From positions 32,001-96,000 of IMG/VR virus record IMGVR_UViG_3300029305_001653: DNA of 64,000 nucleotides; one strand, 5' to 3'. The position numbers and the translations under genes are program-made. Source of the stretch: a virus (Duplodnaviria > Caudoviricetes). Shown here piece by piece: positions 505 through 60,672 of the stretch (position 1 is the stretch's first letter; each line of letters starts with the position of its first letter). Below the pieces are notes generated by a model, which saw only the letters and a program-made list of their open reading frames with translations, was not told where the DNA came from and did not search any database.

Positions 505-543
505 AGGGATTCTAGTGTATTCGACGTATTATAATAATGTAAG
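505..543 (+). promoter_or_regulatory. Conserved bipartite phage promoter, copy 1 (upstream of SigH-like sigma)
   Basis: AGGGATT-N12-ACGTATTATAATAATGTAAG; one of six copies with identical spacing. Confidence 0.85.
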
Positions 544-564
544 CAATCCAAGAGGAGGATTAGG

Positions 565-1674
565 ATGAATAGTATTAATAATATAGTGAAGAAGCTTCGA
601 GAAAATCGAATATTAAATGAGCGTGAGGACTATAGTAAGTATCCAAGAGATAAGTTAATCTCTCTAGCACAAGATGGAGATCAACTTGCTGTCGAGACTC
701 TTATCTCTACTCATGAAGATTTCATAAAGAGAATGAGTAGTAAGTACTTCCTAGGTAGTGGAGATAAAGAAGATGTGGAACAGATAGCTACTATTGCTTT
801 CTGGGATGCTATCAATACTTACGACCCTAAGATTAGTGGAGATTTCGAAGCTTATGCAGGTAGGACTATTAAACGTAGGATGTCTGATGAGATACGTAAA
901 GAAGCAACTGATAAACGTCAAGCTAATAACTTAGCTACTTCTCTTGATGAGCCTGTAGCTAGTGATGATGAAGGTGGAGAGAGTACTCTAGGTTCTACAT
1001 TATCTTCTCAGGTATCTACAGAAGAAGAGTATCTAGGAAAGTTTGGAGCTCGAGATATAATGAAGTTCATAGAGAATAACTTATCTGATACTGAAAGAGA
1101 AGTTATAAAGAAGTATATTCAAGGTTATAAAATCCCTGAGATAGTGGAGGAGATGGACATGAAGTATAAGAGTGTAGAGAATGCTATCTTGAGAGTGAAG
1201 AATAAACTTGCAGAGCATATGAGAAGATCTCACAGTGAGTCAAAGAAACTGAAAGAGGATAATTCCTTAGAGTTCACAGAAGAAGAGAAGCAGGTACTCT
1301 CTAGCATCTTCGGTAAGATAGAGGAGAAAATTTCTATCAGTGAATCTGTACGTAGTGAGCTTGCAGCTACTTATGAGAAGTATACAGAAGAGCAGTTCGA
1401 TTATGAATTAGAAGATATCGAGGATGATGTAGAGGAGATATTATCCGAGTTAGAGGATACTGACTATGATAGCAGAGATGATCTAATTGATTCTTTAGGA
1501 GATCTAAGAGTTAAGCTCTTGACTATGGAGGAGTTCCTGAGTGATGAGCAATATGAAGTATCAGAGAAAATATTAAGTAATATTCGTAATGCCGAGAATG
1601 TAGAATTCAGAGGAGATACTCCTGACGTAGATCCTTACAGAGATAGAGGATTACGTCAGTCAGATTTTGTATAA
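565..1674 (+). CDS. Sigma-70 family RNA polymerase sigma factor, SigH-like, with N-terminal leader and acidic C-terminal extension
   Basis: LISLAQDGDQLAVETL, SKYFLGSGDKEDVEQ..IAFWDAINTYD (region 2), SLDEPV, LSDTEREVIKKYIQGYKIPEIVEEMDMKYKSVENAILRVKNKL (region 4, close to the SigH KSIDNALQRVKRKL pattern); GGAGG RBS. Confidence 0.9.
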   Translation: MNSINNIVKKLRENRILNEREDYSKYPRDKLISLAQDGDQLAVETLISTHEDFIKRMSSKYFLGSGDKEDVEQIATIAFWDAINTYDPKISGDFEAYAGRTIKRRMSDEIRKEATDKRQANNLATSLDEPVASDDEGGESTLGSTLSSQVSTEEEYLGKFGARDIMKFIENNLSDTEREVIKKYIQGYKIPEIVEEMDMKYKSVENAILRVKNKLAEHMRRSHSESKKLKEDNSLEFTEEEKQVLSSIFGKIEEKISISESVRSELAATYEKYTEEQFDYELEDIEDDVEEILSELEDTDYDSRDDLIDSLGDLRVKLLTMEEFLSDEQYEVSEKILSNIRNAENVEFRGDTPDVDPYRDRGLRQSDFV

Positions 1675-1695
1675 TTCAGGAGGGAGAGATTGATT

Positions 1696-2694
1696 ATGAG
1701 CATTGACAATATAGTGAAGAGACTTAGAGAGTCTAGATTAAATGAAGAATCTAAAAAGTATGAATATAAGTTCGATATTCCGTGGAGAGAATCCATGAGT
1801 AATGAGTATGATGAGATGTATCATTACTATCCTAATATGGAATATGCAGATAGAATCATGAAGTCAGCAATCGCAGATTTCAATGATATAGACTGGTCAG
1901 AGTATACTTCCTCAGATGATCGTACAGAAGATTGTAATATCATCCGTATGACTATGGACTTTGATAGTAAAGGAAACTGCGTCATCACAGTAGTTACTAA
2001 TACTGTATGGGATGATGAACAGATCCAGTCTGTCATGGACTATCTTGAAGGTCAGATGAGTGATGGCTGGGGAGAAGGATTTGAGCAGAGAGAAGTTGCT
2101 CAAGAAACTGACTATGAAGAAGAGTGGGTAGAAGATGAAGAGGAAGAAGATGGAGGATACTATACAGAGAATAGGATTGTAAAGTATTACTATGGTCAAT
2201 TCTGGTGGAGTAGTAGGAGTAATCCGTGGACTATTACACTCCTCAGTACTCCTCATGATAAGAACATGCCTACGAATGAATCTAATAGTATCTCCATGGA
2301 ATTCGCTACAGATTCTGAAGCTCATGAGTGGGCAGAGGAGAATGGTTATCAAGTAGATAAGATTCAGCAAGGTAAGGGAGATAAGTCTTGTATCTGTTGG
2401 ATGAGTAAGATTGAGGAGTCTTCAGATTATCTGAATTCATTTAGTAAAGATGTCATGAGAGCAGTCAATAGTGAAGCTCCTAGTGCTCTTCACTGGAAAG
2501 ATGGAGACCTTGTTCAGAATACTAAAACTAATATAGTAGCTACTTTTAGAGGATATGAAAAGAACTCTATTACAGGTACGTATAGAGCAGTATTTGAGTA
2601 CGAAGATGACGGAGATTCTGTTATTGATAAAATCCCTCTCAAGACATTACAGTCAGATATCAAAAGTAAAATTTTAGTAAAGGTAATGAAATAG
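1696..2694 (+). CDS. Putative internal head (poly)protein with leader MSIDNIVKRLRESRLNE
   Basis: ATG at 1696 fits RBS better than TTG 1690; shared leader; internal TNE-S and IEE-S sites; conserved-looking GQMSDGWGEGFEQRE motif. Confidence 0.55.
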   Translation: MSIDNIVKRLRESRLNEESKKYEYKFDIPWRESMSNEYDEMYHYYPNMEYADRIMKSAIADFNDIDWSEYTSSDDRTEDCNIIRMTMDFDSKGNCVITVVTNTVWDDEQIQSVMDYLEGQMSDGWGEGFEQREVAQETDYEEEWVEDEEEEDGGYYTENRIVKYYYGQFWWSSRSNPWTITLLSTPHDKNMPTNESNSISMEFATDSEAHEWAEENGYQVDKIQQGKGDKSCICWMSKIEESSDYLNSFSKDVMRAVNSEAPSALHWKDGDLVQNTKTNIVATFRGYEKNSITGTYRAVFEYEDDGDSVIDKIPLKTLQSDIKSKILVKVMK

Positions 2695-2717
2695 ATTGAT
2701 CGTAGGTGGTGGAGGAT

Positions 2718-4631
2718 ATGCGTAATTTAAGTAGTATCCCTCAAATTAAGAATCTTAATGAAGAAGAGAGTAGACTATTCTATGCTATTCTGTCAGCGTC
2801 ATCTAATAGATCTTCCTTAGATCTGTCTCCTATTGAAAATTTGTACAAGGTAGACTATGATGAGATCCCTGTATCTATAGATGAATTCCTAGAGAATGAT
2901 TACTATCTAGGAAAAGTATATAATAATGGTAAAAATATCTATCCTTACTGGAGAAATTTCCTACATAACTTCTTCCATGATAATCCAGAGAAGGCTTTCG
3001 AAGTAGCGTTAACAGGAGCTATCGGTGTCGGTAAGACAACTATCGCATCGATAGCTCTTATCTACTTAATATACAAAACTCTTTGTCTCAAAGATCCTCA
3101 AAAATTCTATGGACTATCTGCTAACTCTCCTATCGTATTCGTAGTAATGAATTTAACTTTAGAGTTGGCTTATAGCGGTCTTTATTCCTTGATAGTAGAA
3201 GCTATTAGATTGTCTCCTTGGTTCTGTGAAAGAGTAGATATAAGAGGTAAGTATGAATTCTCTATCACATTCCCTAAGAATGTAGCACTTATGGCTGGAT
3301 CTCAAACTACTCACACAATAGGTAAGAACGTATTAGGAGCTGTACTCGATGAAGTTAACTTCAGTAGTGCTCCTAAAGGTTCTAAAAATTCAGTGATGGA
3401 TATGTATCGTAATATTCGTAGACGTCTTGAGTCTCGATTCTTGAAGCAAGGTCGTATGCCAGGTATCCTGATGATGGTATCTTCTAAGAATACAGAGTTA
3501 GACTTCTTGGAGCAGTATATACAGAGTATCAAACATCAGAAGACTACATGGGTAGTAGATGAACCTGTATATAATATCAAACCTCCAGAGACATACATAG
3601 GTACTAGATTCAAAGTGGCTGTAGGTGATAAAACTAAAGAAAGTTATCTAGTAAAAGAAACAGATGATATAGATGAGATTTTGAGTAGAGGTTATCGTAT
3701 TATAGAAGTACCTACAGAGTATAGAGTAGCATTTGAGCAGGATATTAATGATGCCTTGAAGGACATAGCAGGTATCTCTGCTGTATCCACTAGTAAATTA
3801 ATTCCATATGCTGGACGTATAGATATATGCTTCGATAGTAAACGAAAGTCTCCATTCTATACAGAAGAGATTCAGTTAGGATTAGATAGTATCGATGATA
3901 TAAAAGACTTCTTGGAGGATCTTTCTATTCTAAGAAGAAATCTTAATAAACCAAGATTCGCTCATATAGATATAGGATTAAAGGGAGACAGATTAGGATT
4001 AGCAATCGCTCATAGTAGTAAGTCTATTACAGTAGATAGATATACAGCTACAGGAGCTATAGATAAAGTATCCGAGAATTTGTACGATATTGATTTAATG
4101 CTTTCTATAAAAGCATTACCTGGTAGCGAGATACCTCTCTTTAAAGTACGTGAATTTCTCATATGGCTCAATTCATATATAGGATATAAATTTAAGAAGA
4201 TTACTTTCGACGGATTCCAGTCTGCTGATAGTATCCAGTTATTGCAGATATCAGGATTACCTTCAGGATTGTTGTCTGTAGATAGGACTGATATCCCTTA
4301 TTTAAATCTTCGAGCTTGTATACTAGAACAGAGATTAGTAGGATACTACAATAGTATTTTACTAGAGGAATTACGTGACCTAGAGTATGACAGGAGAGCT
4401 AAAAAGGTAGACCATCCGATAGTTAAGTACGATGGTAGTCCTGGCTCAAAAGACTTATCTGATGCTCTTTGCGGAGCAGTATATAATGCTCAAGAATATT
4501 ATTCGAAGCAGAAAAATAATCATATCTCTAAAGAGACTAATGTTAATGCAGCTATGGATGCTTTAGCTAGACTAAAGAATCTGCGTAATATAGAGAAGAG
4601 TAAAGAGTATGATTGGGTACTATATGATTAA
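2718..4631 (+). CDS. terL: Terminase large subunit
   Basis: Walker A TGAIGVGKTT, Walker B AVLDE, nuclease motifs HIDIGLKGD, TFDGFQS, SKDLSDAL; ATG 2718 preferred over GTG 2706. Confidence 0.9.
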   Translation: MRNLSSIPQIKNLNEEESRLFYAILSASSNRSSLDLSPIENLYKVDYDEIPVSIDEFLENDYYLGKVYNNGKNIYPYWRNFLHNFFHDNPEKAFEVALTGAIGVGKTTIASIALIYLIYKTLCLKDPQKFYGLSANSPIVFVVMNLTLELAYSGLYSLIVEAIRLSPWFCERVDIRGKYEFSITFPKNVALMAGSQTTHTIGKNVLGAVLDEVNFSSAPKGSKNSVMDMYRNIRRRLESRFLKQGRMPGILMMVSSKNTELDFLEQYIQSIKHQKTTWVVDEPVYNIKPPETYIGTRFKVAVGDKTKESYLVKETDDIDEILSRGYRIIEVPTEYRVAFEQDINDALKDIAGISAVSTSKLIPYAGRIDICFDSKRKSPFYTEEIQLGLDSIDDIKDFLEDLSILRRNLNKPRFAHIDIGLKGDRLGLAIAHSSKSITVDRYTATGAIDKVSENLYDIDLMLSIKALPGSEIPLFKVREFLIWLNSYIGYKFKKITFDGFQSADSIQLLQISGLPSGLLSVDRTDIPYLNLRACILEQRLVGYYNSILLEELRDLEYDRRAKKVDHPIVKYDGSPGSKDLSDALCGAVYNAQEYYSKQKNNHISKETNVNAAMDALARLKNLRNIEKSKEYDWVLYD

Positions 4632-4651
4632 ACAGGAGGTGAAGATTTTCT

Positions 4652-5599
4652 ATGAATTGTATATCTGAGATACTGCAATCTCTCAGAGAAAGTAGGGTCA
4701 GAGAAACTGTATTCGTCTATAAAGGTGCAGAGTATGAGAATAGATATGGGAATTATTATAGAAATCATAAACCTATCTCTAAGAAAGAGTATCATATTGC
4801 TCGGAGAGGGATACTATCTCAGAAAGACACACAAGGTACTATAGAGTATAGATTGAATTTACCTTACAAAGAATTCGCTAAGAAGATAGAGGATTTTCAA
4901 GAATTCATAGATGAGCTAGAGTATGACAAGGAGTACGAATTACCTAGAGAGACAAGAGGTCATCTTCCTAGGATAGATCCTTATGATGAGTATGAGAGAG
5001 TAGCTCAGATCATGGAAGATACTCAGATGTCTAAATTTGAAGCTTCTCAGGTAAATGATATCCTTTCTAGATATACATCTACTGATAGTTATACTACATT
5101 CTCAGATGAAGAAAAAGAGCTGTTAGATACTTACATAGATACTTCACCTATTTACTCTCCTCCTCCTGTATATAGAGGATTAGGGTTTAGAAAAAGATTA
5201 GGAGACGATAGTCTTAGTGGGTATAAATTGTTCTTAGATTTAGAAGAAGGTAGTGTAATTTCCTCTGAGAATTATTCATCTTTCAGTAGTAATCTTGATG
5301 TTGCAGTAGCATTTGCGAGTACTCACGGAGACTATCATGTGTACATCGTTAATACTAAGAATTTGTCTGGAGTAAGTATAGACCATTTATCTTCTATAGA
5401 CTACAATGAAGATGAGTTAATTTACAAAGCTAATACTAATATGACTGTCTTGAAGAAATTAGTGAAAGACAATATAGTTTATCTTCACGTTATAGAGTCT
5501 CCTATAGAAGAAGATTCAGAGGAAGAGATAATAAAAGTACCTCTACAAGGTAGTATGTTTATAGAGGAAGGAAGAAATTATGCGAGAAATCATAGATAG
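4652..5599 (+). CDS. R-S-E clade ADP-ribosyltransferase (Alt/ModA/VIP2-like) with leader MNCISEILQSLRESRVRE
   Basis: PVYRG, NYSSFSSNLDVAVAFA, GVSIDHLS, NEDELI (ExE, typical of arginine-specific ARTs). Confidence 0.8.
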   Translation: MNCISEILQSLRESRVRETVFVYKGAEYENRYGNYYRNHKPISKKEYHIARRGILSQKDTQGTIEYRLNLPYKEFAKKIEDFQEFIDELEYDKEYELPRETRGHLPRIDPYDEYERVAQIMEDTQMSKFEASQVNDILSRYTSTDSYTTFSDEEKELLDTYIDTSPIYSPPPVYRGLGFRKRLGDDSLSGYKLFLDLEEGSVISSENYSSFSSNLDVAVAFASTHGDYHVYIVNTKNLSGVSIDHLSSIDYNEDELIYKANTNMTVLKKLVKDNIVYLHVIESPIEEDSEEEIIKVPLQGSMFIEEGRNYARNHR

Positions 5600-6080
5600 A
5601 CTAAGGACTAGTCGTATAGACGAAGCTAGGAAGAAAGTAGCTTTAGAAGCTCTAGCTACAGAGTTAAAAGATAAGTTATCTAAAGTAGAAGGTTACTCTC
5701 ATCATAAATTATCTATATCTCCGAACTACGATGAAGGATGCGTAGATGTACTATTCAGAGGTACTGATGATGCTTTTAGAGTATACCCTCAGAAGACTAA
5801 GATCTCTAATGAGAATTCTAATAAAGTAATATCTGTATCTTCTATAGATGGAGCTTATATATTAGGTACTAAAGTATATGATGAGGAAGGTAATTTGTTA
5901 GGAGAAGCTTTAGTAAGAACAAAAGCTGTACATAACAAATCAGATTACTCTGAGGACTTAACAAAAGCTGAGTATCGTTTTAATTCTAAGATTACTAATC
6001 TTCAGAAGTTAGAAAAGTATATAGCTAGGGAAGCTATTAATAATATGGAAAAGAACTCTAGAAAGAGAAGGGATTCTTAG
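5580..6080 (+). CDS. Hypothetical protein with leader MREIIDRLRTSRIDE (putative internal head protein)
   Basis: ORF plus shared leader motif. Confidence 0.55.
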   Translation: MREIIDRLRTSRIDEARKKVALEALATELKDKLSKVEGYSHHKLSISPNYDEGCVDVLFRGTDDAFRVYPQKTKISNENSNKVISVSSIDGAYILGTKVYDEEGNLLGEALVRTKAVHNKSDYSEDLTKAEYRFNSKITNLQKLEKYIAREAINNMEKNSRKRRDS

Positions 6081-6107
6081 TTGTATCACGTATTATAATA
6101 ATGTAAG
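6069..6107 (+). promoter_or_regulatory. Conserved bipartite phage promoter, copy 2
   Basis: AGGGATT-N12-ACGTATTATAATAATGTAAG followed by TAAGG-GAAA-CCTTA hairpin. Confidence 0.85.
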
Positions 6108-6139
6108 GGAAACCTTATAATAATAAAAGGAGAGATAAT

Positions 6140-6442
6140 ATGTATATTGAACCTACAAAAGAAGTAAAAGAAGGCTCTATTTTTGATATTCATGAAGATG
6201 CTATGGATATATTACTCTATCCTGCTAGTGAAGACGTACCCTGTCCTTGGGATGCAGATATCATTATCAAAGATGGAGAAGTTATCCTCTCTGGAGGACT
6301 AGGACCTGGATTCTTCGGAGGAGCTAAATGTATCTGTAATTGTACTATAGGTAGATTTTCTCAGTTCTACAAGTTAGAGGTACCTGAAGATAATGAAGAA
6401 CTTATTGATGCTTTAACTTCTGCAGGATGGGAAGTAGTGTAA
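6140..6442 (+). CDS. Hypothetical acidic protein in its own promoter-gene-terminator unit
   Basis: AAAGGAG RBS; flanked by promoter copy 2 and a hairpin. Confidence 0.65.
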   Translation: MYIEPTKEVKEGSIFDIHEDAMDILLYPASEDVPCPWDADIIIKDGEVILSGGLGPGFFGGAKCICNCTIGRFSQFYKLEVPEDNEELIDALTSAGWEVV

Positions 6443-6453: not shown

Positions 6454-6486
6454 ATAAAAGAAGAGTATCAGATACTCTTCTTTTAT
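6454..6486. terminator. Intrinsic terminator-like palindrome
   Basis: ATAAAAGAAGAGTATC-A-GATACTCTTCTTTTAT. Confidence 0.75.
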
Positions 6487-6496
6487 TTAAGAAGGA

Positions 6497-6877: not shown

Positions 6878-6952
6878 TTACTACTATACTACTTCCTAGC
6901 ATAGCAGATAAGAAAACCATTCACGTAAGTAAAGAAATAAAGGAGGTGAGGA

Positions 6953-10744: not shown

Positions 10745-11860
10745 TTGCAGCTTGTAGAAAAATCTATAGGTCCTTTATCAACTCAAGGAAAGAAAATCTT
10801 ATCAGGACTTTTTGCTGAGCTAGGTACACTTAATCAAAATGGCAGACGCTATCCTGATGACATATACGAATCTGCGTATGAAGAGTTGATACCAAAGATA
10901 AAAGATAAAAGATTGTTAGGTGAATTAGATCACCCTGTAGACTACGATGAAGTTAGATTATCTAATGTTTCTCATGTCATTACAGACTGTGAGATTCTAG
11001 AAGATCAAGGAGTCAAGAAAGTATATGGCTCTGTCGAATTATTAGATACTCCAGCTGGATTGATAGCTCAGTCTTTAGTAGAAGCAGGTATTCCTTTAGG
11101 CATCTCTTCTAGAGGAGTAGGCTCTACAAGACAAGTAAGAGATGGAGTAGAAGTTACTGACTTAAAACTTATCACTTATGATTTAGTAGCTGATCCGTCA
11201 TTTGCTAATGCGGTACTTTCTCCAGATCAGTCTAAAAAATTATCAGATAGTCTAGAATACATTGAGTCTAAACTACCTCTAAATGAATCTTTAGAGCATA
11301 ATAGCATAAGAGATATGATACATAATATTCGTGAATCTCTCATTAGTAAGAAGACTACTCCTACTAAAGAGATTAGTATAAATAAAGCAGAGACTGATAA
11401 TCTAAAAAGATTATTAGAGACTGCAGAGTCTACTATTAAATCAGATACAGAGAAGATGATAGAGTCTCGTAAAGAGATTAAATCTTTGAGAAGAGAGCTC
11501 ATGAGTGCTAATAAGAAGTATGAAAGCTTATTAGAAAATATGTTTAATCTACAAGAAGATTATAATAGATTGAAAGAAGCCTCTACCTATAAAGAAAAGA
11601 TTAATTCTCTTGAGCTAGAAATCGTAGAGCTAAGAAAAAATTTAGCTGTTGAAAAGAGAGGTATGTCGTACTCTCAAGTATCTGAATTACTAGAAGGAGC
11701 TAATACTATAGATGAAATCGAGAATAGACTGAATTCTCTATCTTCTGTAGGACGGAAACGTCAGACTACCATCAATATACAGTCTAATACTTTGACTGAG
11801 AGTACTAAGACTGAAAATCCTAGATTGTCTGGATTAGCTGCTATAGTATCTAGAGTTTAG
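10745..11860 (+). CDS. Prohead protease (T4 gp21-like) with C-terminal coiled-coil scaffold-like region
   Basis: NQNGRRYP, LGELDHP, VSH, GISSRGVGS, YDLVADPS. Confidence 0.92.
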   Translation: MQLVEKSIGPLSTQGKKILSGLFAELGTLNQNGRRYPDDIYESAYEELIPKIKDKRLLGELDHPVDYDEVRLSNVSHVITDCEILEDQGVKKVYGSVELLDTPAGLIAQSLVEAGIPLGISSRGVGSTRQVRDGVEVTDLKLITYDLVADPSFANAVLSPDQSKKLSDSLEYIESKLPLNESLEHNSIRDMIHNIRESLISKKTTPTKEISINKAETDNLKRLLETAESTIKSDTEKMIESRKEIKSLRRELMSANKKYESLLENMFNLQEDYNRLKEASTYKEKINSLELEIVELRKNLAVEKRGMSYSQVSELLEGANTIDEIENRLNSLSSVGRKRQTTINIQSNTLTESTKTENPRLSGLAAIVSRV

Positions 11861-19941: not shown

Positions 19942-19980
19942 AGGGAATTAAGATAATTCCACGTATTATAATAATGTAAG
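19942..19980 (+). promoter_or_regulatory. Conserved bipartite phage promoter, copy 3
   Basis: AGGGAAT-N12-ACGTATTATAATAATGTAAG. Confidence 0.85.
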
Positions 19981-20022: not shown

Positions 20023-20346
20023 ATGAAGAATAAAATATTCACTACTGGCGAGATACTGACTATCAAGACTAATCTTAGAGAAATTGAAAAGAATTTAGGA
20101 GGTCCTATCCCTGGAGGAGTAATTGATGTAGATGATTTGAAAGATCATATATTACGTCCAGGAGAAGTAGTTACAGTATGTAGCAATTTGAGAGCTTTAA
20201 ATAAGAGAGATTCTTCCTATAAAGGTAGTACTCCTTACGGAAGCAAGACTACACCAGGTAGTGCTATAAAAGCTATAATATTCTTACTAGCAGTATCTGG
20301 GATAATATTCATAATAGAGAAAATATTAGGTCTGACTATATTATAA
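20023..20346 (+). CDS. Small membrane-anchored protein with internal duplication
   Basis: TGEILTIKTNLREIEK / PGEVVTVCSNLRALNK; C-terminal hydrophobic AIIFLLAVSGIIFII. Confidence 0.65.
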   Translation: MKNKIFTTGEILTIKTNLREIEKNLGGPIPGGVIDVDDLKDHILRPGEVVTVCSNLRALNKRDSSYKGSTPYGSKTTPGSAIKAIIFLLAVSGIIFIIEKILGLTIL

Positions 20347-45782: not shown

Positions 45783-45784
45783 TC

Positions 45785-51705: not shown

Positions 51706-51872
51706 GAAAAGAAATCGTAGATCCTAAGAATGGAGCAATACTTTTCAAGAAAACAGAGGAGACTATAACTCTAGAAATCCTTGTAGGTAAAGTGAAAGAT
51801 CTAGAGAGTAGAAATAAGAAACTTGAAAAGCGTTTATCAGAGATAGAAAAATTACTAAAAAAGGACTCGTAA
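51702..51872 (+). CDS. Small coiled-coil protein (not in ORF track)
   Basis: GTGA overlap with upstream stop; MRKEIVDPKNGAILF...LEKRLSEIEKLL. Confidence 0.55.
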   Translation: MRKEIVDPKNGAILFKKTEETITLEILVGKVKDLESRNKKLEKRLSEIEKLLKKDS

Positions 51873-51883
51873 GAGTCCTTTTT
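51858..51883 (+). terminator. Intrinsic terminator ending the structural region
   Basis: AAAAAGGACTC-GTAA-GAGTCCTTTTT. Confidence 0.85.
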
Positions 51884-51900: not shown

Positions 51901-51939
51901 AGGGAAATAGAATTTTATCACGTATTATGATAATGTAAG
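51901..51939 (+). promoter_or_regulatory. Conserved bipartite phage promoter, copy 4
   Basis: AGGGAAA-N12-ACGTATTATGATAATGTAAG. Confidence 0.8.
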
Positions 51940-51979: not shown

Positions 51980-52585
51980 ATGAATAACAACATTGACTGG
52001 AAAGAGATAGAAGATAAAATAGCTATCATCTGTTACAAATTTAGTAACTTATCTTCATACCATGAAGATTTAGCACAAGAGCTTAGAATCCACGCCTACT
52101 ATGTCTCAGATAATTATTATGACTTGTATCGTAAAGCTATAGACTTCTGGAGAAAGTTACAATCTAGACAGTCTCCTGAAGTTCCTTACTTTGATTTAGA
52201 ACTTTTAGGAGGTTCCTATTCCATGGAGAAAGAAGCTACAGATCAGTTTAACGATATAGTATTTCTTATCCGTAAGGAATTAAATAGATTTCCTCAGAGT
52301 AAGTGGGATAGTAATAAGATAGACGTAGCTACGAAACTTTTAGATATCATCTTAGAAGATATAGACCCTAAGAAGGTAGAAGGTAATTCTGATATAGTAG
52401 GAGATTCTAATCTTAACCACTATATCAATCATAGACTAAATTTATCATGGGTTTCTGAAGAGACAGGTATCGGATATAAACAGATAGTTATGGCTATGAA
52501 ACTCTTAGAAGATATAGTTAGAGGATTACATGCTATGAAGAAGATAGAGATTCCTTTAGAGTATTTCCAGGGATACTACGAATAA
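51980..52585 (+). CDS. Divergent sigma-70-like factor (region 2 and region 4-like HTH)
   Basis: HEDLAQEL..RKAIDFWRK (region 2-like); LSWVSEETGIGYKQIVMAMKLL (HTH). Confidence 0.55.
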   Translation: MNNNIDWKEIEDKIAIICYKFSNLSSYHEDLAQELRIHAYYVSDNYYDLYRKAIDFWRKLQSRQSPEVPYFDLELLGGSYSMEKEATDQFNDIVFLIRKELNRFPQSKWDSNKIDVATKLLDIILEDIDPKKVEGNSDIVGDSNLNHYINHRLNLSWVSEETGIGYKQIVMAMKLLEDIVRGLHAMKKIEIPLEYFQGYYE

Positions 52586-52607: not shown

Positions 52608-52642
52608 AATAAGAGCTCCTAGACGATCTAGGAGCTCTTATT
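52608..52642. terminator. Bidirectional terminator between convergent genes
   Basis: AATAAGAGCTCCTAGA-CGA-TCTAGGAGCTCTTATT. Confidence 0.8.
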
Positions 52643-52717: not shown

Positions 52718-53797
52718 TCAAGTCTCATTCACTACAGTGTCAATATGATTTACGATAGTCTCGTAATGAGACAAGATATTCTCCTCTACTAAATCATACA
52801 AGGTACTTACTCTCTCTAATCTTTCTTCTTCTGACAAACTTCCTAATATATCAGGTAGATCCTTATAATTAGTCTTACTTACTCTTATAGCAGAGTTGAA
52901 TCCTAACCAGTCAGGTGTAGATTCTTGACAAAGTACAGGTAGACATCCTTCTCTGATAGCTTCCATAGTAGCTATCTCTACTCTAGGTTGATGATTACGT
53001 AATCCCATATTCCTCATCAAGAATAAGAAATTCCAATGGTACTTGACATCTTCTAATAATCTAGGTACTTGACTAGGCTCAAAATATCCTAAATCATGAT
53101 AAGACTCTGTAGGTAATTCTTCCATCTTTAAATTATACCAGTAACTCTGATGAGATCCTGCAGCATACACTTCTATACCATTCTTTACAAAATCATCAGA
53201 CATAGACAAGTACTCATAAATCCTTTTTGCTGTAGTCCATCTGCAGGTAGACATAATCTTATTACTCTTCTTCTTAGCTTTCTCTAGTATCTTCTCTTTA
53301 GGAGGTAATAAAGGACTGAAGCTAACATACTCCCAATCTCCACAGATATCAATATAGTCATCGAAGCAGTCTGCCATACCAGGACAATTGAACATAACAA
53401 ATGTCATATTAGGATGATTAAGAAAATTCATGTGATAAGGGTAAAGTTTCCTATCATTCTCCTCATGACATATGAATGTAAACTTCTTAGTATGGTTCAA
53501 TACATCTATATACTTATCAGGAGTAGCTTCATTATACTTTTCGTAAGTCAGACCTGGGGAAGAGAATATTACGAAATCATAATTAGAGAGTATCGAAGGA
53601 TTAGAGTGATACTCTACAGCTTCAGCTAAAGGAGACTTGTAGTTCTTATTATCACGTAATGTAATTAAATCTACATCTTTTATGTATCTACGTAATTGAT
53701 CTGCTAGGTAAATAGGAGCAGAAGAAGCTCCACCTACTTCTCCAGGACCAAATCCATTGTGAAATGTACATATACAAACTTTAAAATTATCTCTCAT
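52718..53797 (-). CDS. GT-B glycosyltransferase, T4 DNA alpha-glucosyltransferase-like
   Basis: N-terminal Gly loop, YDFVIFSS, ICHEE, RWTTAK, EIATMEA..GCLPVL line up with my recollection of T4 Agt motifs (RTTTWK; EYTHLE..GTIPVF). Confidence 0.75.
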   Translation of the reverse strand: MRDNFKVCICTFHNGFGPGEVGGASSAPIYLADQLRRYIKDVDLITLRDNKNYKSPLAEAVEYHSNPSILSNYDFVIFSSPGLTYEKYNEATPDKYIDVLNHTKKFTFICHEENDRKLYPYHMNFLNHPNMTFVMFNCPGMADCFDDYIDICGDWEYVSFSPLLPPKEKILEKAKKKSNKIMSTCRWTTAKRIYEYLSMSDDFVKNGIEVYAAGSHQSYWYNLKMEELPTESYHDLGYFEPSQVPRLLEDVKYHWNFLFLMRNMGLRNHQPRVEIATMEAIREGCLPVLCQESTPDWLGFNSAIRVSKTNYKDLPDILGSLSEEERLERVSTLYDLVEENILSHYETIVNHIDTVVNET

Positions 53798-53807
53798 ACT
53801 CTACTCC

Positions 53808-54095
53808 TTAATACTTTGCTATATAGTATTCAGCATACTCCGTGAGATCTATACCTTCTATTACTGCTCTAGCTTCTAAGATTGCTAGATAATCTGCCAT
53901 AGCTCTAACTTGAATATTGTAAGTGCTACGAGGACATGTAGGCTTAAATCCTATGATCTCTTCTCCTCCGAAATCCCACTTACTCAGTAGATCTCTTAAT
54001 TTATTATATCTTATAGCTAATTGTAAGTATTCAGATTTAAATCTTTCTTTATAATCTGAACTTGTCATCATAGAAATAGTATCTTTCAATTCCAT
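53808..54095 (-). CDS. Conserved small phage protein (crAss001_48-like)
   Basis: MMTSSDYKERFK.EY.QL.IRY.KL, PTCP, Q..AM..YL.ILE.RA.IEGI. Confidence 0.7.
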   Translation of the reverse strand: MELKDTISMMTSSDYKERFKSEYLQLAIRYNKLRDLLSKWDFGGEEIIGFKPTCPRSTYNIQVRAMADYLAILEARAVIEGIDLTEYAEYYIAKY

Positions 54096-54097
54096 AA

Positions 54098-55174
54098 TTA
54101 ATTATCCTTTCCATCTAAATATTTTATACAGAGATAACCATCTTCATCTACATAAGCCATATCAGGTAGTTTCCAGGAAGGGTTATACTTCATACGATCA
54201 GAGTATTTATAATTAGACCTTAACTCAACTGTACGATTCTCCTCATCATATCCTAGTACATTATTAGGAGTAAGAGTAATCTTACCTATCTGAGTCATGA
54301 GAGCTAATATAGGCTTACTCCTACCTGTCACATGTCCTGAATTCACTAGAGATTCGTAACAGTCTATCATCTTTGATACTGAAGGTCTTAGATGATGAGT
54401 ACCTTTCATAGGTACTGCATGGAATAGATAATGAGCTTCTATTCCTCTCATTCTCATAGAGTGATATAGTTCAATGAGTTGCTTAGGAGTATCATTTACT
54501 CCCTTTAAGAAAACATTTTGAGAGTAGATAGTGATACCTATACTCTGTAATCTCTTTATTACATTATCTACATCTTCATCGAATTCAAGATGTGAATTTA
54601 TTTGAGTAGCTACTTCTACTCTCTTGACTTTACTATATCTGCTAAGAACAGAATATATCTTCTCTGAGATGGTCTTAGGAGACTGAGTAATCATCCTAGT
54701 AGCTATACGATAAATTTGTACATTAGGAGCTATATCATAGAGATAGCCTAAGAATTTACTAAGAGCCTTGATATTAGTAAATGGATCTCCTCCAGTAATC
54801 AATATCTCCTCGAATCCTTCATCTCTGCAGTACTCAGCTATAGCTATCAGATTATCGTCAGTAAGTCTATAATGATCTTCATAATTACTCCTCAAACAGT
54901 ATCTACAGTTAGAAGCACATCCCCAAGCTATCTCCACACATCCATGTCTTCGATATAACCTTTCAAGATTCTTTATAGAGTCTCCTTCACAATCTGCTTC
55001 ATAGTGTCTATTATTCACTTCATCAGTGACTATATCCTCTTCTTCCCTATATACGTACTGATTATATATAGACAAGTACTCCTCAGAATCTTTACCATAT
55101 GTTTCTTCAAGAAAAGATAATTTATCTTTTAAGTGTTTACTTATCACTTGTCTGAATTCTTCTCTTCTACTCAA
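54098..55174 (-). CDS. KamA-family radical SAM/PLP 2,3-aminomutase-like enzyme
   Basis: LERLY, CASNCRYCLR, EILITGGDP, RIATR, QNVFLKGVND, YLFH, GK (PLP lysine position). Confidence 0.88.
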   Translation of the reverse strand: MSRREEFRQVISKHLKDKLSFLEETYGKDSEEYLSIYNQYVYREEEDIVTDEVNNRHYEADCEGDSIKNLERLYRRHGCVEIAWGCASNCRYCLRSNYEDHYRLTDDNLIAIAEYCRDEGFEEILITGGDPFTNIKALSKFLGYLYDIAPNVQIYRIATRMITQSPKTISEKIYSVLSRYSKVKRVEVATQINSHLEFDEDVDNVIKRLQSIGITIYSQNVFLKGVNDTPKQLIELYHSMRMRGIEAHYLFHAVPMKGTHHLRPSVSKMIDCYESLVNSGHVTGRSKPILALMTQIGKITLTPNNVLGYDEENRTVELRSNYKYSDRMKYNPSWKLPDMAYVDEDGYLCIKYLDGKDN

Positions 55175-56286
55175 TCTATATTCCTCCTAACTGACCTAAT
55201 TTTGCCTGTATTCGAAACTTCAATTAAACCGAATTTTACAGGAATATTCAGAGATAATTTATTACGTATCTCTACTCTGATATAGTCTACTATTTCCTCA
55301 TTATGGATATAATCTACACTGCTAATTATTAACTCTGCGTACTCAATAGGATCTTCTCTAGAGACACGTAACTGACTGATAAGATCAGGACATCCATAGA
55401 GTAATCCAGCCTCTGCTACGATGTCTCTAATAGTATTAGGATAAACATTTAATCCTCTTATGACTAACATTTCATCTGATCTTCCTAATATATTGAATCT
55501 AAAGTTAGGTCCATCAGACAGAACTTCTACGATATCTCCTACATTGTAGTTGATACGATTAATAAGTCCTCCCTCATATGTAGTAGTGATGAGTAACTCT
55601 CCTACTAAACCCTTTTTAGGAGGTAGAATCTGATCTCCTACTTTAATACTAGCAAAAGCAATATCATCTGCTAAGAATTGAAGACTATCTCTAGTATAAT
55701 AATTCTCAGAAGCTAACATTGAGATACTATCAGCAGAGCCATAATTAGCATTCAAAGCTTCAATACCCCACTCTTCCTCAATATTTTTCCTAAAATTAGG
55801 ATTCTGGATACCACTTTCTCCTCCGAAAAATCCATACTTGAGTCCAAGATTCCTAGGACTCATATTAAATTCATCCTTGAGAACTTCTTTAATTTTGTAC
55901 ATATAAGAAGGAGTACAAGAGATACCTTCAATATTATAGTACATGATAGTATTAATCAATTCTTTAGTGTTACCTACTCCGTAAGGAAATACAGCAGCTC
56001 CTGCTTTCATAAGACTAGTACAGTCTACGAATCCTCCAGACCACATCTGGAAATTAAGGCAGTGTATTATCCTCATACCTGGACGAACTCCTGCATTAAT
56101 GAAGCATCTAGCTCCTACATCAGTAATCTTCTCGAAATCTATCTTGTTCATAGCTATAGACAAAGGAACTCCTGATGTAGAACCTGAGGTTCTCACTACT
56201 AAATTAATATCTCTTTCTTTTACTTCAGAAACTCCTAAATGATTAGTAGACTGAAAAGATAGTAAATCTGACTTATAAGTAATCAT
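55171..56286 (-). CDS. Phenylacetate-CoA ligase-like adenylate-forming enzyme
   Basis: TSGSTSG, CTPSY, GGE, NYG, GD, GRSDEMLVIRGLNVYP, TGKIR. Confidence 0.85.
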   Translation of the reverse strand: MITYKSDLLSFQSTNHLGVSEVKERDINLVVRTSGSTSGVPLSIAMNKIDFEKITDVGARCFINAGVRPGMRIIHCLNFQMWSGGFVDCTSLMKAGAAVFPYGVGNTKELINTIMYYNIEGISCTPSYMYKIKEVLKDEFNMSPRNLGLKYGFFGGESGIQNPNFRKNIEEEWGIEALNANYGSADSISMLASENYYTRDSLQFLADDIAFASIKVGDQILPPKKGLVGELLITTTYEGGLINRINYNVGDIVEVLSDGPNFRFNILGRSDEMLVIRGLNVYPNTIRDIVAEAGLLYGCPDLISQLRVSREDPIEYAELIISSVDYIHNEEIVDYIRVEIRNKLSLNIPVKFGLIEVSNTGKIRSVRRNID

Positions 56287-57128
56287 TAGATTAAACCTCC
56301 TTCATCGAATATCTTTTTATGATCTATGATATGAGCAGGATTACCTACTACAACACTATTGTCAGGTATATCTCTTATAACTACAGCTCCCATACCTATT
56401 GAAACGTTCTTACCAATCTTTATTCCATTACGTATTTTAGCTCCTATACCTATCACTGTATGGTCACCTATCACTGTACTACCTCCTATGATAGTACCTG
56501 CAGCTATGATACAAGACTTACCTATAATACAATTATGACCTATCTGACACCCAAAATCAATTTGAGTATTATCTCCTATTTTAGTATAATTGAATGTTCC
56601 TCTACCTACCATAGTATTGTATTTGATTACTACATTATTTCCTATCAAGACTCCTCCTAATTGAGGAAATTGTACTATAGTCTCTGCATCATACCCTAGG
56701 ACAGGACTAAAATCAATACCTCCTAATATGACTCCATGATCTATCCAGCAGTTACGTCCTATAATAATTTCTTTACAGTAAATATTAGGTAGATATCTAA
56801 GATAGTCAGATTTAGACAGATTATCTGTATGAATCCTTTGAAGTCTAGAGAGCAATTCAAATTTAGATACAACAAGACAAAATGTAAATTTAGGATTCTT
56901 TACTCTAATGAAATCATTTCTTTTAGACTGGAGTTCAGGATAAGATTCATTTATGAGATAAACACAGTGCTCACTATTGTCTAATCTTTCTAGATTAATG
57001 TCAGGTTTATTTATGAACATCAAAGTATTGTAATTAACGTCTAAAGAGTCTACTTGTATGATGTTGAATTCTTTATCTGAGGGACTCAGTGATAGAAAGC
57101 TTCGTATATCATTATTAGTTACACTCAT
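56286..57128 (-). CDS. LpxD-like hexapeptide-repeat N-acyltransferase
   Basis: VKNPKFTF, FPQLGGVLIGNNV, QIGHNCIIG, IGMGAVVIRDIP..VVGNPA. Confidence 0.85.
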   Translation of the reverse strand: MSVTNNDIRSFLSLSPSDKEFNIIQVDSLDVNYNTLMFINKPDINLERLDNSEHCVYLINESYPELQSKRNDFIRVKNPKFTFCLVVSKFELLSRLQRIHTDNLSKSDYLRYLPNIYCKEIIIGRNCWIDHGVILGGIDFSPVLGYDAETIVQFPQLGGVLIGNNVVIKYNTMVGRGTFNYTKIGDNTQIDFGCQIGHNCIIGKSCIIAAGTIIGGSTVIGDHTVIGIGAKIRNGIKIGKNVSIGMGAVVIRDIPDNSVVVGNPAHIIDHKKIFDEGGLI

Positions 57129-57129
57129 A

Positions 57130-57834
57130 CTAAAAATCCTCCGTTACAATAGTCATAGGATAAAATGCCTCTGCGTAATCTCTACCTATTTCAGTACCTC
57201 TTACTTTAGCGAGTGTAATTATGGAAGAGATATCTAGAATATCTCTCGGATCTCTGACTAATTGAGATCTATATTCAGATAAAGCTAATTTCTTCTTCTC
57301 AATATCTTCAGCTGAGAGTGGTACATAAAGCTTACTATTAGGGCTCAAGTTACTACTCCAAGTATTCACGTAAGGGTACTCATACATAGCTTTCAGCTGT
57401 ATATAATTAGTATCTACTGTAGGACGTAGTGCAGCAACACTAGCTTGGAATACTGCTTGATGATCTTGGTGATGACTACTATAAGGGAAAAGAACTGCTG
57501 TAGGTCTAAACTCTCTAATCACTTTGTCTAACTGAGTTACTAAAGATTTCTTGTCTACCTGGTCTAGCTTTCCGTCTATAAATCCTTTTAATTGGATTAG
57601 ACTTATACAGCCTTTACGAAATCCTAATCTCCATAGAGCATTTACAGTCTCTGATATTCTTTCCTCATTAGAAACTACTCTACCTACATTGTAATTATGT
57701 ACATTAGAATGAGTAGCTACTAGTACTACCATAACTTTATTCTCAGTATCAGTAGCTAGCTTGCTCATCAAACCTCCGCATCCGATAGTTTCATCATCAC
57801 AGTGAGGAGTGATGATTAAAGTACGTTTGAACAT
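57130..57834 (-). CDS. PIG-L/LmbE family N-deacetylase
   Basis: PHCDDETIGCGG, R..E, DG, HHQDH, Y.SQ, YAEAF. Confidence 0.9.
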   Translation of the reverse strand: MFKRTLIITPHCDDETIGCGGLMSKLATDTENKVMVVLVATHSNVHNYNVGRVVSNEERISETVNALWRLGFRKGCISLIQLKGFIDGKLDQVDKKSLVTQLDKVIREFRPTAVLFPYSSHHQDHQAVFQASVAALRPTVDTNYIQLKAMYEYPYVNTWSSNLSPNSKLYVPLSAEDIEKKKLALSEYRSQLVRDPRDILDISSIITLAKVRGTEIGRDYAEAFYPMTIVTEDF

Positions 57835-57846
57835 GAGTACCTCCTC

Positions 57847-58506
57847 TTATATCATAGAATGTCCATAGATATTTAAAGAGTTCATAATCTCTTTATTTTC
57901 AGATAAAGTGTCTTTCATAGACTTGATAGCTCCTCTTACTACAGTAGACAAATAATGATTTACAGGGATAGTAAAATAATCAATCTTATACTCCTTCAAG
58001 TACTGGAGAACTTCATGAGCTACCCTTAACATATAATAATTGTGTAATAAAGAGACTTCTTTTATCACTTTATTAGCTACTACTAAAGTATCTACAAGCT
58101 TCAATATCAATCCTTCAGGTTCTTCCTTAGCATCTCTCCACAATTCATAGTGGAGTTCACTATTACTGAATTGAGACTTGAAGAACTTCTTAGCTACACT
58201 ATCAGCTACATCTTTTAAAGATTCTCTAGTACCTTCACTGTAATACTTGACAGGTCTAGGAATATCTCCTGTAATGACTTCCTCTAAATCGTGATAAACT
58301 GCTTTCATAACATACTTACTAGATTGTATGTATTCGAAGCCTGCAATTTTATTCACTTCATCGATTATCTTTAATCCTAACATTACAGTATCTATAATGT
58401 GTTGAGATAAAGATTCTGCCTCTACTAGCTTAGTACCACTATATCTGTAAGTATGGTCTAAGTTCATGAGAGGACTGGATACTAGTTCTAAAAATTTATT
58501 GTCCAT
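57847..58506 (-). CDS. HD-domain (YfbR-like) deoxynucleotide phosphohydrolase
   Basis: RYS..ESLSQH, HDLEEVITGDIP.PVK, KLVD. Confidence 0.85.
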   Translation of the reverse strand: MDNKFLELVSSPLMNLDHTYRYSGTKLVEAESLSQHIIDTVMLGLKIIDEVNKIAGFEYIQSSKYVMKAVYHDLEEVITGDIPRPVKYYSEGTRESLKDVADSVAKKFFKSQFSNSELHYELWRDAKEEPEGLILKLVDTLVVANKVIKEVSLLHNYYMLRVAHEVLQYLKEYKIDYFTIPVNHYLSTVVRGAIKSMKDTLSENKEIMNSLNIYGHSMI

Positions 58507-58563
58507 TTAACGTCTCCTCCTTGCCCTTATCTTCTAAAATAAGAAACGTGACATATCTTATTA

Positions 58564-58781
58564 TTGAGCTACTTTTATGATTTTATGCAAAAGTAGCTCA
58601 ACGTTAGAGTTTCTTACGTTGCTTAGCATGTAAGCTTTTAAGCTTACAAGGCTGCGGAGCAGCAAGCAACTACGTAAGATGGAGGAGCTATATTATTATA
58701 ATAATTAACATTATTATAATAATCACTTATAATGCTTAGCATGTAAGCTTAAGAAAAATGAAATCTGAGAGATTTCATTTT
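58564..58781. other. Highly structured divergent intergenic region (multiple inverted and direct repeats)
   Basis: 13-bp IR 58564-58601, branched fold 58613-58678, two ATTATTATAATAAT palindromes, 18-bp direct repeat, hairpin 58755-58781. Confidence 0.65.
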
Positions 58782-58799
58782 ATATCTGAAGAGTAGAAA

Positions 58800-58838
58800 A
58801 GGGATTCTTGAAGATATCACGTATTATAATAATGTAAA
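58800..58838 (+). promoter_or_regulatory. Conserved bipartite phage promoter, copy 5
   Basis: AGGGATT-N12-ACGTATTATAATAATGTAAA. Confidence 0.85.
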
Positions 58839-58864
58839 AGAAAATTAAATAGGGAGAGTGTATC

Positions 58865-60649
58865 ATGAAGACTTACAATGATGAGAGTATTAAAGTACTT
58901 TCTGATATAGAGCATATCCGTACTCGTCCTACTATGTATATCTCTACTGAGAGACCTTCATATCAAATGTGGACTGAGATAGCTGATAATGCTGTAGATG
59001 AAGCTATGAATGGATATGCTTCAGAGATTGTTTTTGAAATTGATTTCATTAATAATTATATATGTGTAGAAGATAATGGTAGAGGACTTCCTCAAGGCAG
59101 GAATGAAGAACTTGGTAAGCCTACTATCTTTGCTATTTACCAGAAACTCAACGCAGGTGGTAAATATGATCAAGATTCTTACGCTATGAGCGGAGGTTTA
59201 AATGGAGTAGGTAGTACAGTTGTAAATGCTCTATCTAAAGAATTCCATGTATTTTCTTGGAGAGACGGATCTTGTATTACAGCTGACTTTGAGTATGGTG
59301 AGACTGTAGGATCTAATATTCCATTCCATGATCCTCAGTATAACAAGAAATCAGGTACTAGAGTATTCTATCGTATTGATACTGAACATTCTCTTTTCAC
59401 TGACAAACTTTCCGACTATGAACAAGACATTATTAATAAAGTACGTCTTTTGAAAACTTTGATGCCTAAAGTCAAAATTATCTATAATAATGAAGAGATT
59501 CAAGCTAGAGATTTTAGAGAATTCCTTCAGTTATCTAAAGAACCTTTACTAGATAATTCTATACTTATAGAGTGCAAAGACTATTCTGTAGCATTGAATT
59601 GGTCTAAAGATACTAATAAAAGTACACAAATTTCTTATTGCAATAGTATTTTTACTCCTAATGGAGGAGATCACGTCAATGGTATTCATAACGCATTGAT
59701 AGATATATTTGGTACTGATAGTATGTATGGTCTCAATATAGCACTTTCAGTTAAATATCCTAGAGTAGAATTCGATAGCCAAGCTAAGACTAAAGCAATT
59801 TCTAAGGATATGAAATCATATCTTACAGAGAACTTCAGTACAGAATTCAAGTCTTATCTTCGTAAGTATCCTGATATTAAAGAGTCTATCTCTAAGTTAA
59901 TTGCATATAAGAGAAATGAACTTAATAAACGTAATAACAAGAGTAATGTACGTAGAGATAGGAAGAGTACATTCTTAAATACCTTAGGAGTCTCTGGATT
60001 CGCAGACTGTAATTGCAGTGATAGATCAGGAGCTGAATTGTATATAGTAGAAGGTAATTCAGCTGCAGGTTCTGCTAAACAAGCTAGGGATGTTGAGACA
60101 CAAGCTGTTATGCCATTAAGAGGTAAAGTACTCAATGTATTGAATTCTGATATGAAGTCTATCCTGAACAATAAAGAAATTGCGACTATTTATGCAAATC
60201 TTGATACAGGTATTATGGAAGACTTCAATATTAAGAAATCTCGTTATAGTAAAGTAATTATATTTACAGATGCGGATGAGGATGGCAAAAACATAGCAGC
60301 ATTGTTGATTACTCTCTTCGCTACATTATCTCCTGAATTGATAGATTCAGGTTATCTTTACTTAGCTCTTCCTCCACTCTATGGTACATATGAAGGTAAG
60401 AAATTCATCCCTATAAATGATGAAGAAACTAAGAATGAGTATCTCAGTAAAGGATACTCTATCACAAGATATAAAGGACTCGGTGAGATGAATCCTGAGC
60501 AACTTCGTATCTCTTGTATGGATCCTAGTACTAGAGTATTGATTAGATTGGATAGATCTCCTGAATGCTCTCATAGGATACAGCAAGTCATGGGTTCAGA
60601 TACTTCTTTTCGAAGAAAACTTCTTCAAGAAGAAGGGATTCTAGTATAG
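58865..60649 (+). CDS. Type IIA DNA topoisomerase subunit B (GyrB/ParE-like)
   Basis: EIADNAVDE, DNGRG, GGLNGVG, EGNSA, PLRGK, DADEDG, RYKGLGEM. Confidence 0.95.
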   Translation: MKTYNDESIKVLSDIEHIRTRPTMYISTERPSYQMWTEIADNAVDEAMNGYASEIVFEIDFINNYICVEDNGRGLPQGRNEELGKPTIFAIYQKLNAGGKYDQDSYAMSGGLNGVGSTVVNALSKEFHVFSWRDGSCITADFEYGETVGSNIPFHDPQYNKKSGTRVFYRIDTEHSLFTDKLSDYEQDIINKVRLLKTLMPKVKIIYNNEEIQARDFREFLQLSKEPLLDNSILIECKDYSVALNWSKDTNKSTQISYCNSIFTPNGGDHVNGIHNALIDIFGTDSMYGLNIALSVKYPRVEFDSQAKTKAISKDMKSYLTENFSTEFKSYLRKYPDIKESISKLIAYKRNELNKRNNKSNVRRDRKSTFLNTLGVSGFADCNCSDRSGAELYIVEGNSAAGSAKQARDVETQAVMPLRGKVLNVLNSDMKSILNNKEIATIYANLDTGIMEDFNIKKSRYSKVIIFTDADEDGKNIAALLITLFATLSPELIDSGYLYLALPPLYGTYEGKKFIPINDEETKNEYLSKGYSITRYKGLGEMNPEQLRISCMDPSTRVLIRLDRSPECSHRIQQVMGSDTSFRRKLLQEEGILV

Positions 60650-60672
60650 TCCACGTATTATACTAATGTAAG
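60634..60672 (+). promoter_or_regulatory. Conserved bipartite phage promoter, copy 6 (overlaps last codons of topo B)
   Basis: AGGGATT-N12-ACGTATTATACTAATGTAAG. Confidence 0.82.

Follow-up and report, generated by a model that had tools for sequence, protein, structure and literature searches.

The window considered here is a 64,000-nucleotide stretch of phage DNA, bases 32001-96000 of the one-contig, 112,222-bp virus record IMGVR_UViG_3300029305_001653 (35% G+C). It carries six copies of a bipartite, promoter-like motif, hereafter class 1, of which the complete record holds 18. The explanation that best accounts for these copies, to which we assign a probability of roughly 0.72 on the strength of sequence comparison, is that they are sigma-H-type promoters read by a SigH-like sigma factor encoded by the phage itself, and that this factor activates its own gene.

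Within the window the motif reads AGGGAWW-N12-ACGTATTAT(A/G)(A/C)TAATGTAA(G/A) and starts at 505, 6069, 19942, 51901, 58800 and 60634, always on the + strand, exactly where an earlier note on this DNA had placed it. The 20-nt core downstream of the spacer begins at 524, 6088, 19961, 51920, 58819 and 60653, and with up to three mismatches allowed it occurs six times in the window against 0.17 expected in shuffles. That note had also described a constant 19-nt distance from the first G of GGGA to the C of CGTAT with a variable spacer between them, and this holds at 6/6 sites. When the six regions are aligned, conservation is confined to the two boxes and to the opening bases of the presumed transcript, while the 12-nt spacer and the flanks vary. 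Each site is followed, after 22-48 nt, by a start codon that has a strong ribosome-binding site (RBS) of GGAG type. The six predicted promoters are:

505..543, + strand: class-1 promoter, with AGGGATT at 505-511 and the core at 524-543; a 22-nt leader separates it from the ATG of the SigH-like sigma gene; 51.8 bits
6069..6107, + strand: class-1 promoter upstream of a 100-aa gene (6140-6442)
19942..19980, + strand: class-1 promoter upstream of a 107-aa gene (20023-20346)
51901..51939, + strand: class-1 promoter upstream of a 201-aa gene; the weakest copy, with AGGGAAA, TATGAT and 43.3 bits
58800..58838, + strand: class-1 promoter upstream of the gene for a topoisomerase II B-type subunit (58865-60649)
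60634..60672, + strand: class-1 promoter upstream of a 108-aa gene (60719-61045), which is followed by the gene for a topoisomerase II A-type subunit (61069-62859); the site overlaps the 3' end of the topoisomerase B gene

The earlier note had envisaged a regulon of six sites and had suggested a motif scan of the whole genome; genome-wide the number rises to 18 sites, which a weight matrix separates cleanly from the rest. Their shared form is AGGGAWW-N12-ACG(T/A)ATTATAATAATGTAAG, and 18/18 are intergenic and on the + strand. With a matrix built from these sites, members score 43-59 bits and everything else on either strand scores 8 bits or less; the set is discrete and has no weak members. The upstream box, AGGGAWW, is invariant at all 18 sites and at about 50 sites of relatives. 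In the downstream half, this phage has a perfect TATAAT in 14/18 copies, and the -10 box is GTAT (GTATTA) in 16/18 and GAAT (GAATTA) in 2/18. At three copies upstream of the window (genome 16880-16920, 19820-19860 and 29160-29200), AGGGATT is also the 3' arm of a terminator-like hairpin of the form AAATCCCTYCT..AGRAGGGATTT followed by a T-run, so that terminator and promoter overlap.

Could such uniformity come from recent copying rather than from selection by a sigma factor, the repeats being recombination or mobility modules? Some copies do share more than the boxes: the spacer CTAGAAATCTTC is identical in three of them, and identical 35-nt leaders stand before unrelated genes. Copying cannot explain, however, why the two boxes and their spacing are kept around a free spacer across phages whose proteins are 41-60% identical, nor does it account for the strict rules of strand and position. 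It is also compatible with promoter function, and hence no true alternative, and we consider it very improbable as the explanation. No paralogy was found among the small first genes behind class-1 promoters.

The genes behind the copies indicate what kind of signal this is. Ten of the 18 fall in a region of small genes at 10-30 kb, upstream of the window, and others precede genes for a UvrD-like helicase, an NAD-dependent ligase and a flap exonuclease. A cluster of 9-11 tRNA genes also lies behind one copy, and the signal must therefore act on transcription rather than translation; an Rfam scan returned only tRNAs above the gathering threshold. In the window, the unit that begins at 505 runs from the sigma gene (565-1674) through genes for a 334-aa protein, a terminase-like protein, a 315-aa protein and a 166-aa protein. 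Behind the copy at 6069 come the 100-aa gene, a hairpin with a T-run (~6456-6490) and then the portal gene, and the unit at 19942 comprises the 107-aa gene and, after a 26-nt gap, a tape-measure-like gene and tail genes. The promoter at 51901 is preceded by a terminator hairpin (51858-51883), and the 201-aa gene behind it is followed by a bidirectional terminator (52608-52642). The earlier description of the downstream genes as non-structural is accordingly right for the first gene at each copy and wrong for whole units, which reach terminase, tape-measure and tail genes.

Relatives were gathered from ENA and Logan assemblies by protein look-ups, and eight contigs that bear the sigma gene were compared together with three that bear the 201-aa gene (11 loci); the samples that yielded the relatives include ERZ28436057, ERZ28436083 and ERZ28436109. 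A megablast search of phage records with the first 8 kb gave no match, IMG/VR gave none to the exact motif or to the sigma factor, and the motif pattern is absent from GTDB genomes and from JGI metagenome contigs. Gene order around the sigma gene is identical in all contigs fetched. The class-1 motif is present in 8/8 sigma-bearing contigs, in contig L008 and, as a single copy, in L009; L010 has only a candidate with one mismatch. The spacing is as strict as the sequence: in this genome and the 11 loci, N12 gives 51 + strand matches, and each other spacing from 9 to 16 gives 0-2 on that strand. Syntenic copies stand before the sigma operon in 9/9 phages, before the 201-aa gene in 3/4, L008 and L009 among them, and before both topoisomerase genes.

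The relatives also show which parts of the motif matter. Close relatives read ACGAATTATAATAATGTAAG, with GAAT in place of GTAT, and GAATTA is found in essentially all class-1 copies of relatives. L013 keeps only AGGGAWW-N14-GAATTATAAT, in which GAAT is retained and the preceding C and the GTAAG are not; L014 and L009 keep AGGGA and CGAAT and have TATGTA, TGTATA or TATTAAGG in place of TATAAT. The invariant core of the clade is AGGGAWW-N14-GAAT, and the GTAT of this phage is a concerted shift of its whole promoter set.

This core is, by its sequence, of the sigma-H promoter type. The distance from the A of AGG to the G of GAAT is invariably 21 nt, which corresponds to an 11-nt spacer between nine-base boxes; Britton et al. 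are said to have given, in 2002, 11-12 nt for the spacer between such boxes at sigma-H promoters. The sigma-H consensus is RNAGGAWWW / RNNGAATWW (PMC8510167), and AGGGAWW departs from its -35 element, AGG-AWW, by a G in place of an A at one position. The earlier note had described a shifted SigH-like promoter. The SigH-like part fits the consensus; the shift is not needed to make it fit, as the corresponding position in relatives is occupied by a true GAAT.

Where would transcription begin? Many leaders open with a hairpin whose 5' arm, GTAAGG, is fixed by the promoter and whose 3' arm is CCTTAC, with loops that vary. A perfect stem of at least 5 bp that starts from the G or T of GTAAG occurs in 11/48 leaders (10 of them distinct), compared with 0.83 expected from shuffled leaders, and stem starts peak at these two bases and fall off upstream. 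GTAAG would therefore be transcribed, with initiation at or just before its G, and the pattern argues for an RNA 5' end at or next to that base. With that start, G(T/A)AT would span about -13 to -10, where a sigma-H -10 box is expected.

These data bear directly on the embedded TATAAT, which the earlier note had offered as a possible site for host SigA. Host SigA would then use TATAAT as its -10 element, and AGGGAWW would be the site of a phage activator or appropriator that takes over the -35 contact, in the manner of MotA/AsiA at T4 middle promoters. The hexamer is indeed perfect in most copies of this phage and of its close relatives, and AGGGAWW stands at the place of a -35 element, 18 nt from TATAAT. 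A start set by a TATAAT -10 box would, however, fall 3-4 nt further downstream, inside the stem, so that the leader hairpins begin 3-4 nt upstream of where they should. The distant relatives L009 and L014 lack TATAAT and yet keep AGGGA and CGAAT at the same spacing, and the class-1 sites have neither a TG extension nor a TTGACA-like -35 element. Canonical SigA promoters are not in excess in the closed genome as a whole (69, against ~75 in shuffles), and few of them are intergenic. No MotA-like or AsiA-like protein was identified, although no search was aimed at them. Use of SigA through TATAAT is weakened by the loss of the hexamer in distant relatives and by hairpins that start too far upstream for it, and we regard it as quite unlikely.

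The sigma factor that would instead read the class-1 sites is encoded directly behind the first of them in the window:

565..1674, + strand: SigH-like sigma factor of 369 aa, with a region 2 and region 4 core at about residues 28-220

To this core are added a 19-aa N-terminal leader that ends in ILNE and an acidic C-terminal extension of ~145 aa. Pfam matches are to Sigma70_r2 (3e-12), Sigma70_ECF and r4_2. The five best NCBIfam models are all of the SigH group, three of them by name, and align over nearly their full length with E values from 2.5e-28 to 2e-27; the alignment to TIGR02859 covers positions 6-197 of 198 (E 5e-28). A profile of the phage sigma family finds the SigH structure 3mzy as its best PDB match (3e-35), the next sigma factor following at 5e-15. 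For the -35 recognition helix, the phage family has KSVENALMRVKNK and 3mzy the similar KSIDNTIQRIRKK. The earlier assignment of this gene to a SigH-like factor is thus borne out by end-to-end SigH alignments and by its closest solved relative; judged from these comparisons, the product is SigH-like and neither an orthologue nor an equivalog of SigH. Among metagenomic proteins it has 50 homologues at 41-60% identity, together with two cellular-type SigH-like proteins at 25-30%. A lenient Pfam scan of its tail and of the other leader-bearing proteins described below returned nothing significant.

Additional sigma genes were seen in the early regions of some relatives. L005 has one at 3969-4730 whose 253-aa product is SigB/F/G-like, and L013 (1743-2489) and L014 (1059-1547) have genes with a Sigma70_r2 match only; a six-frame Sigma70_r2 search of the present genome found no counterpart of these.

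Taken together, the preferred model has the phage SigH-like sigma associating with host core RNA polymerase. Its region 4 would contact AGGGAWW and its region 2 would contact G(T/A)AT, 14 nt downstream. Transcription would begin at the G of GTAAG or at a neighbouring base and would produce short leaders (22-48 nt), often with a 5'-terminal hairpin. Since the sigma gene lies behind a class-1 copy of its own, the factor would boost its own synthesis in a positive feedback loop. Other copies would drive the tRNA cluster, the small genes of the early region, and the genes for the UvrD-like helicase, the topoisomerase II subunits, the NAD ligase, the flap exonuclease and the 201-aa protein. The autoregulatory arrangement, with a motif copy before the sigma gene, was part of the earlier proposal and is conserved in 9/9 phages. 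We infer that the phage factor, not a host factor, is the reader, and likewise the start point and the cascade discussed below.

Several observations weigh against this model. The sigma factor scores well below the curated SigH cut-off (97.8 vs 294.8 bits for TIGR02859). GTAT stands where a sigma-H promoter should have GAAT in 16/18 copies of this phage, and comparison with relatives found no change in the sigma factor that co-varies with the GTAT/GAAT shift: the one private substitution at a conserved column, F348, lies in the tail, far from region 2, and M100R is shared with relatives that use GAAT. The perfect TATAAT of this phage and its close relatives is conserved beyond the needs of a sigma-H promoter. 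The recognition helix is so like that of cellular SigH that host SigH might read class-1 sites as well. Finally, if the sigma gene depends on its own product, the loop needs another starter.

The last two points lead to the most serious competitor, in which host SigH reads the class-1 promoters or starts the programme and the phage sigma amplifies it or serves other promoters. The motif fits the cellular sigma-H consensus (PMC8510167), the recognition helices of the two factors are close, and, given the lack of SigA-type promoters, host SigH would solve the start-up of a self-dependent sigma gene. But if host SigH sufficed, it is hard to explain why a phage sigma gene lies directly behind a motif copy in every one of the nine phages, and both the invariant extra G (AGGGA vs AGGA) and the GTAT variant seen here deviate from the cellular consensus. 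On balance this explanation is unlikely, and reading by the phage's own SigH-like sigma is preferred.

Comparison with characterized systems places the proposed pair more precisely. As with the sigma-H (Spo0H) of B. subtilis and other Bacillota, the phage factor has two domains (regions 2 and 4), can be aligned along the entire SigH model and has a similar -35 recognition helix, and AGG-AWW and GAAT boxes stand at a sigma-H-like distance. In contrast to cellular SigH, it is phage-encoded, only ~25-30% identical to cellular SigH-like proteins and below curated cut-offs, and it has the 19-aa N-terminal leader and the ~145-aa acidic tail. Its promoters in turn differ from sigma-H promoters in the extra invariant G of AGGGA, in the prevalence of GTAT, and in 14 more conserved nucleotides on the downstream side of the -10 box.

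Among phages, SPO1 uses gp28 as the sigma factor for its middle genes and gp33/gp34 for its late genes, and starts infection from early promoters read by host SigA. Coliphage phiEco32 has a small two-domain sigma factor, gp36, with highly uniform cognate promoters before phage genes, and in T4 gp55 is the late sigma factor, early promoters being of the SigA (sigma-70) type. The phage studied here resembles SPO1 as a large virulent myovirus of Gram-positive type in which, as proposed, a sigma factor of its own redirects host core polymerase to two-box promoters; it differs in that no SigA-type promoters stand out and in that its head genes are T4-like. SPO1 gp28 groups with sigD/sigH/sigI-like factors (bioRxiv 10.1101/2021.11.12.468384). 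A tblastn search of phage records with the sigma factor gave 13 weak matches, none of them to SPO1. With T4 it shares the portal, the gp21-type protease, the gp23-type capsid protein and an [LIV]-x-E leader on proteins encoded beside the head genes. From phiEco32 gp36 and its promoters the present system differs in sigma lineage, promoter sequence and host phylum.

The leader deserves separate attention. A sequence of the form I(V/I)xRLRE(S/N)R..[LIV]xE is common to the sigma factor (565) and to at least four unrelated proteins, encoded at 1690, 4652, 5580 and 10257, and the form I(V)xxLRE(N/S)R..[LIV]xE varies hardly at all between sigma homologues; small proteins in relatives carry it too. 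The leader-bearing genes adjoin the T4-type head genes, and a Peptidase_S77-type, gp21-type prohead protease is encoded at 10745-11860. In T4 the gp21 protease cleaves after L/I-x-E, and short N-terminal sequences direct internal proteins, as well as Alt, which modifies RNA polymerase, into the capsid (PMC9026906). Both features of T4-type capsid-targeted proteins, a leader that ends in L/I-x-E and a gp21-type protease, are found here. From these sequence features it is possible, though we hold the idea only tentatively and would sooner bet against it, that the SigH-like sigma is capsid cargo, targeted by its leader, trimmed by the protease and injected with the DNA; the 18 promoters would then be immediate-early. 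If true, an injected sigma would explain both a closed genome without evident SigA promoters and a sigma gene that depends on itself. To our knowledge no injected sigma factor has been described, and we know of no sigma factor that is packaged by T4.

The protein encoded behind the class-1 copy at 51901 may extend the programme by a further step:

51980..52585, + strand: protein of 201 aa; strong conservation within the clade; may be a two-domain sigma factor of very divergent sequence

It has 113 homologues at 39-77% identity and surpasses the SigH-like sigma in conservation within the clade; a profile search finds a narrow family of 19 representative clusters. It has no Pfam, PHROG or NCBIfam match, and Pfam likewise finds nothing in its most distant relatives. 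Several weak signals agree in pointing to a sigma factor. A six-frame search gives a Sigma70_r2 (PF04542) match at E 0.07, which is weak, as is an hhalign comparison with sigma region 4.2 (probability 32%). A structure model with a mean pLDDT of 78.6 has as its top Foldseek matches, with few exceptions, ECF sigma factors, at E values of at least 0.16, and it has VIA Z scores of 5.3-6.7 to SigH, SigL and SigW (6.7 to 3mzy) and of 5.5 to T4 gp55. In the Atlas, 20/30 named neighbours are viral Sigma70_r2 clusters (0.91-0.93). The 201-aa protein is likely a two-domain, sigma-like protein; the earlier note's "second sigma-like gene" is supported by this concordance of weak signals and finds no backing from Pfam, PHROG or NCBIfam.

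A second promoter-like motif, class 2, which the earlier note does not mention, was seen while the intergenic gaps were read. It has the form TAGCYYAAC-N13-ACGTTWCT (longer form TAGCYYAAC-N13-ACGTTWCTTATAATGTAAG) and 11 intergenic sites genome-wide: on the + strand at genome positions 2431, 7434, 30207, 90616, 94868, 97306, 99839, 101682, 108205 and 110661, and on the minus strand at 90549. Three lie in the window (58616 +, 58549 - and 62868 +):

58594..58634, + strand: class-2 site, TAGCTCAAC-N13-ACGTTGCTTAGCATGTAAG; heads a short conserved stretch that is hairpin-forming and then AT-rich; syntenic in L008
58531..58571, - strand: class-2 site, TAGCTCAAT-N13-ACGTTTCTT; 43 nt before the first gene of a minus-strand operon (52718-58506); syntenic in L008
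62846..62886, + strand: weaker class-2 site, in which 4/19 core positions differ; upstream of a nucleoside deoxyribosyltransferase-like gene

Class-2 sites head the genes for a DnaB-like helicase, a single-strand-binding protein and the deoxyribosyltransferase as well as the minus-strand operon, and one is a second promoter of the tRNA cluster. The motif is conserved in relatives, of which the distant ones keep AACGTTTCT and lose TATAAT. Its AAC...CGT pattern resembles ECF-type promoters, and the 201-aa protein is therefore a natural candidate for its reader. The sigma cascade of the earlier note is plausible as a hypothesis; in it the SigH-like sigma would lead to the 201-aa protein, whose likely targets would be the class-2 promoters.

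Two of the class-2 promoters belong to copies of one module, at 58507-58864 in the window and at genome 30171-30401 upstream of it. In order, the module has the class-2 promoter, a hairpin (GTAAGCTT..AAGCTTAC), a long-range pairing and an AT-rich stretch with tandem TTATTATAATAAT. Relative L012 has a compensatory GGAAGC/GCTTCC variant of the hairpin, and each relative conserves one copy of the module. Its possible roles are those of a small RNA or of a transcription-primed replication origin.

The minus-strand operon at 52718-58506 has seven genes. In a relative, its products match an HD phosphohydrolase, a PIG-L deacetylase, a hexapeptide acyltransferase, an AMP-binding ligase and a radical-SAM enzyme, and from these matches it could encode a pathway of nucleotide or DNA modification. 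In more distant relatives its place is taken by genes for a choline kinase and a BCCT transporter.

In L004-L007, L011, L012 and L014, the element ACTATATA(R)TATGA lies 8-10 nt before the RBS of the portal gene, after a conserved TACTACTATACT hairpin. Its sequence and position make it a candidate for a late promoter that consists of a -10-like box alone. The present phage lacks this element before its portal gene (window 6878-6952).

How complete is the genome in which these promoters were counted? Its first ~125 nt (1-126) recur near the end of the contig (~112,050-112,222); because the ends overlap, the genome looks closed, and it is probably closed at ~112.1 kb. Against this stands an automatic completeness estimate of 69%. 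A short inverted stretch follows the end repeat and has the look of an assembly artefact. The head genes are of T4 type (portal, gp21-type protease and gp23-type capsid protein), and a baseplate protein is ~31% identical to SPO1 gp16.2.

The use of a phage sigma factor with cognate promoters is a known strategy, exemplified by SPO1 and T4. What sets the variant described here apart is that the factor is of SigH lineage and bears a leader, that its promoter set is extremely uniform and that host-type promoters are apparently absent. A set this clean, with two boxes, fixed spacing and a predicted start, together with an identifiable SigH-like factor, is a candidate for an orthogonal sigma/promoter pair. 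With GAAT in relatives and GTAT here, it is also a good case in which to follow the joint drift of a promoter set and its sigma factor. The uncultured clade to which the phage belongs is represented by dozens of metagenomic contigs of 112-122 kb and combines heads of T4 type with tails of SPO1 type. Its transcription appears to rely on two phage-specific classes of promoter, with no sign of ordinary host-type promoters. A programme that depends on its own product in this way raises the question of how it is started, and a sigma factor delivered in the capsid, if true, would be new.

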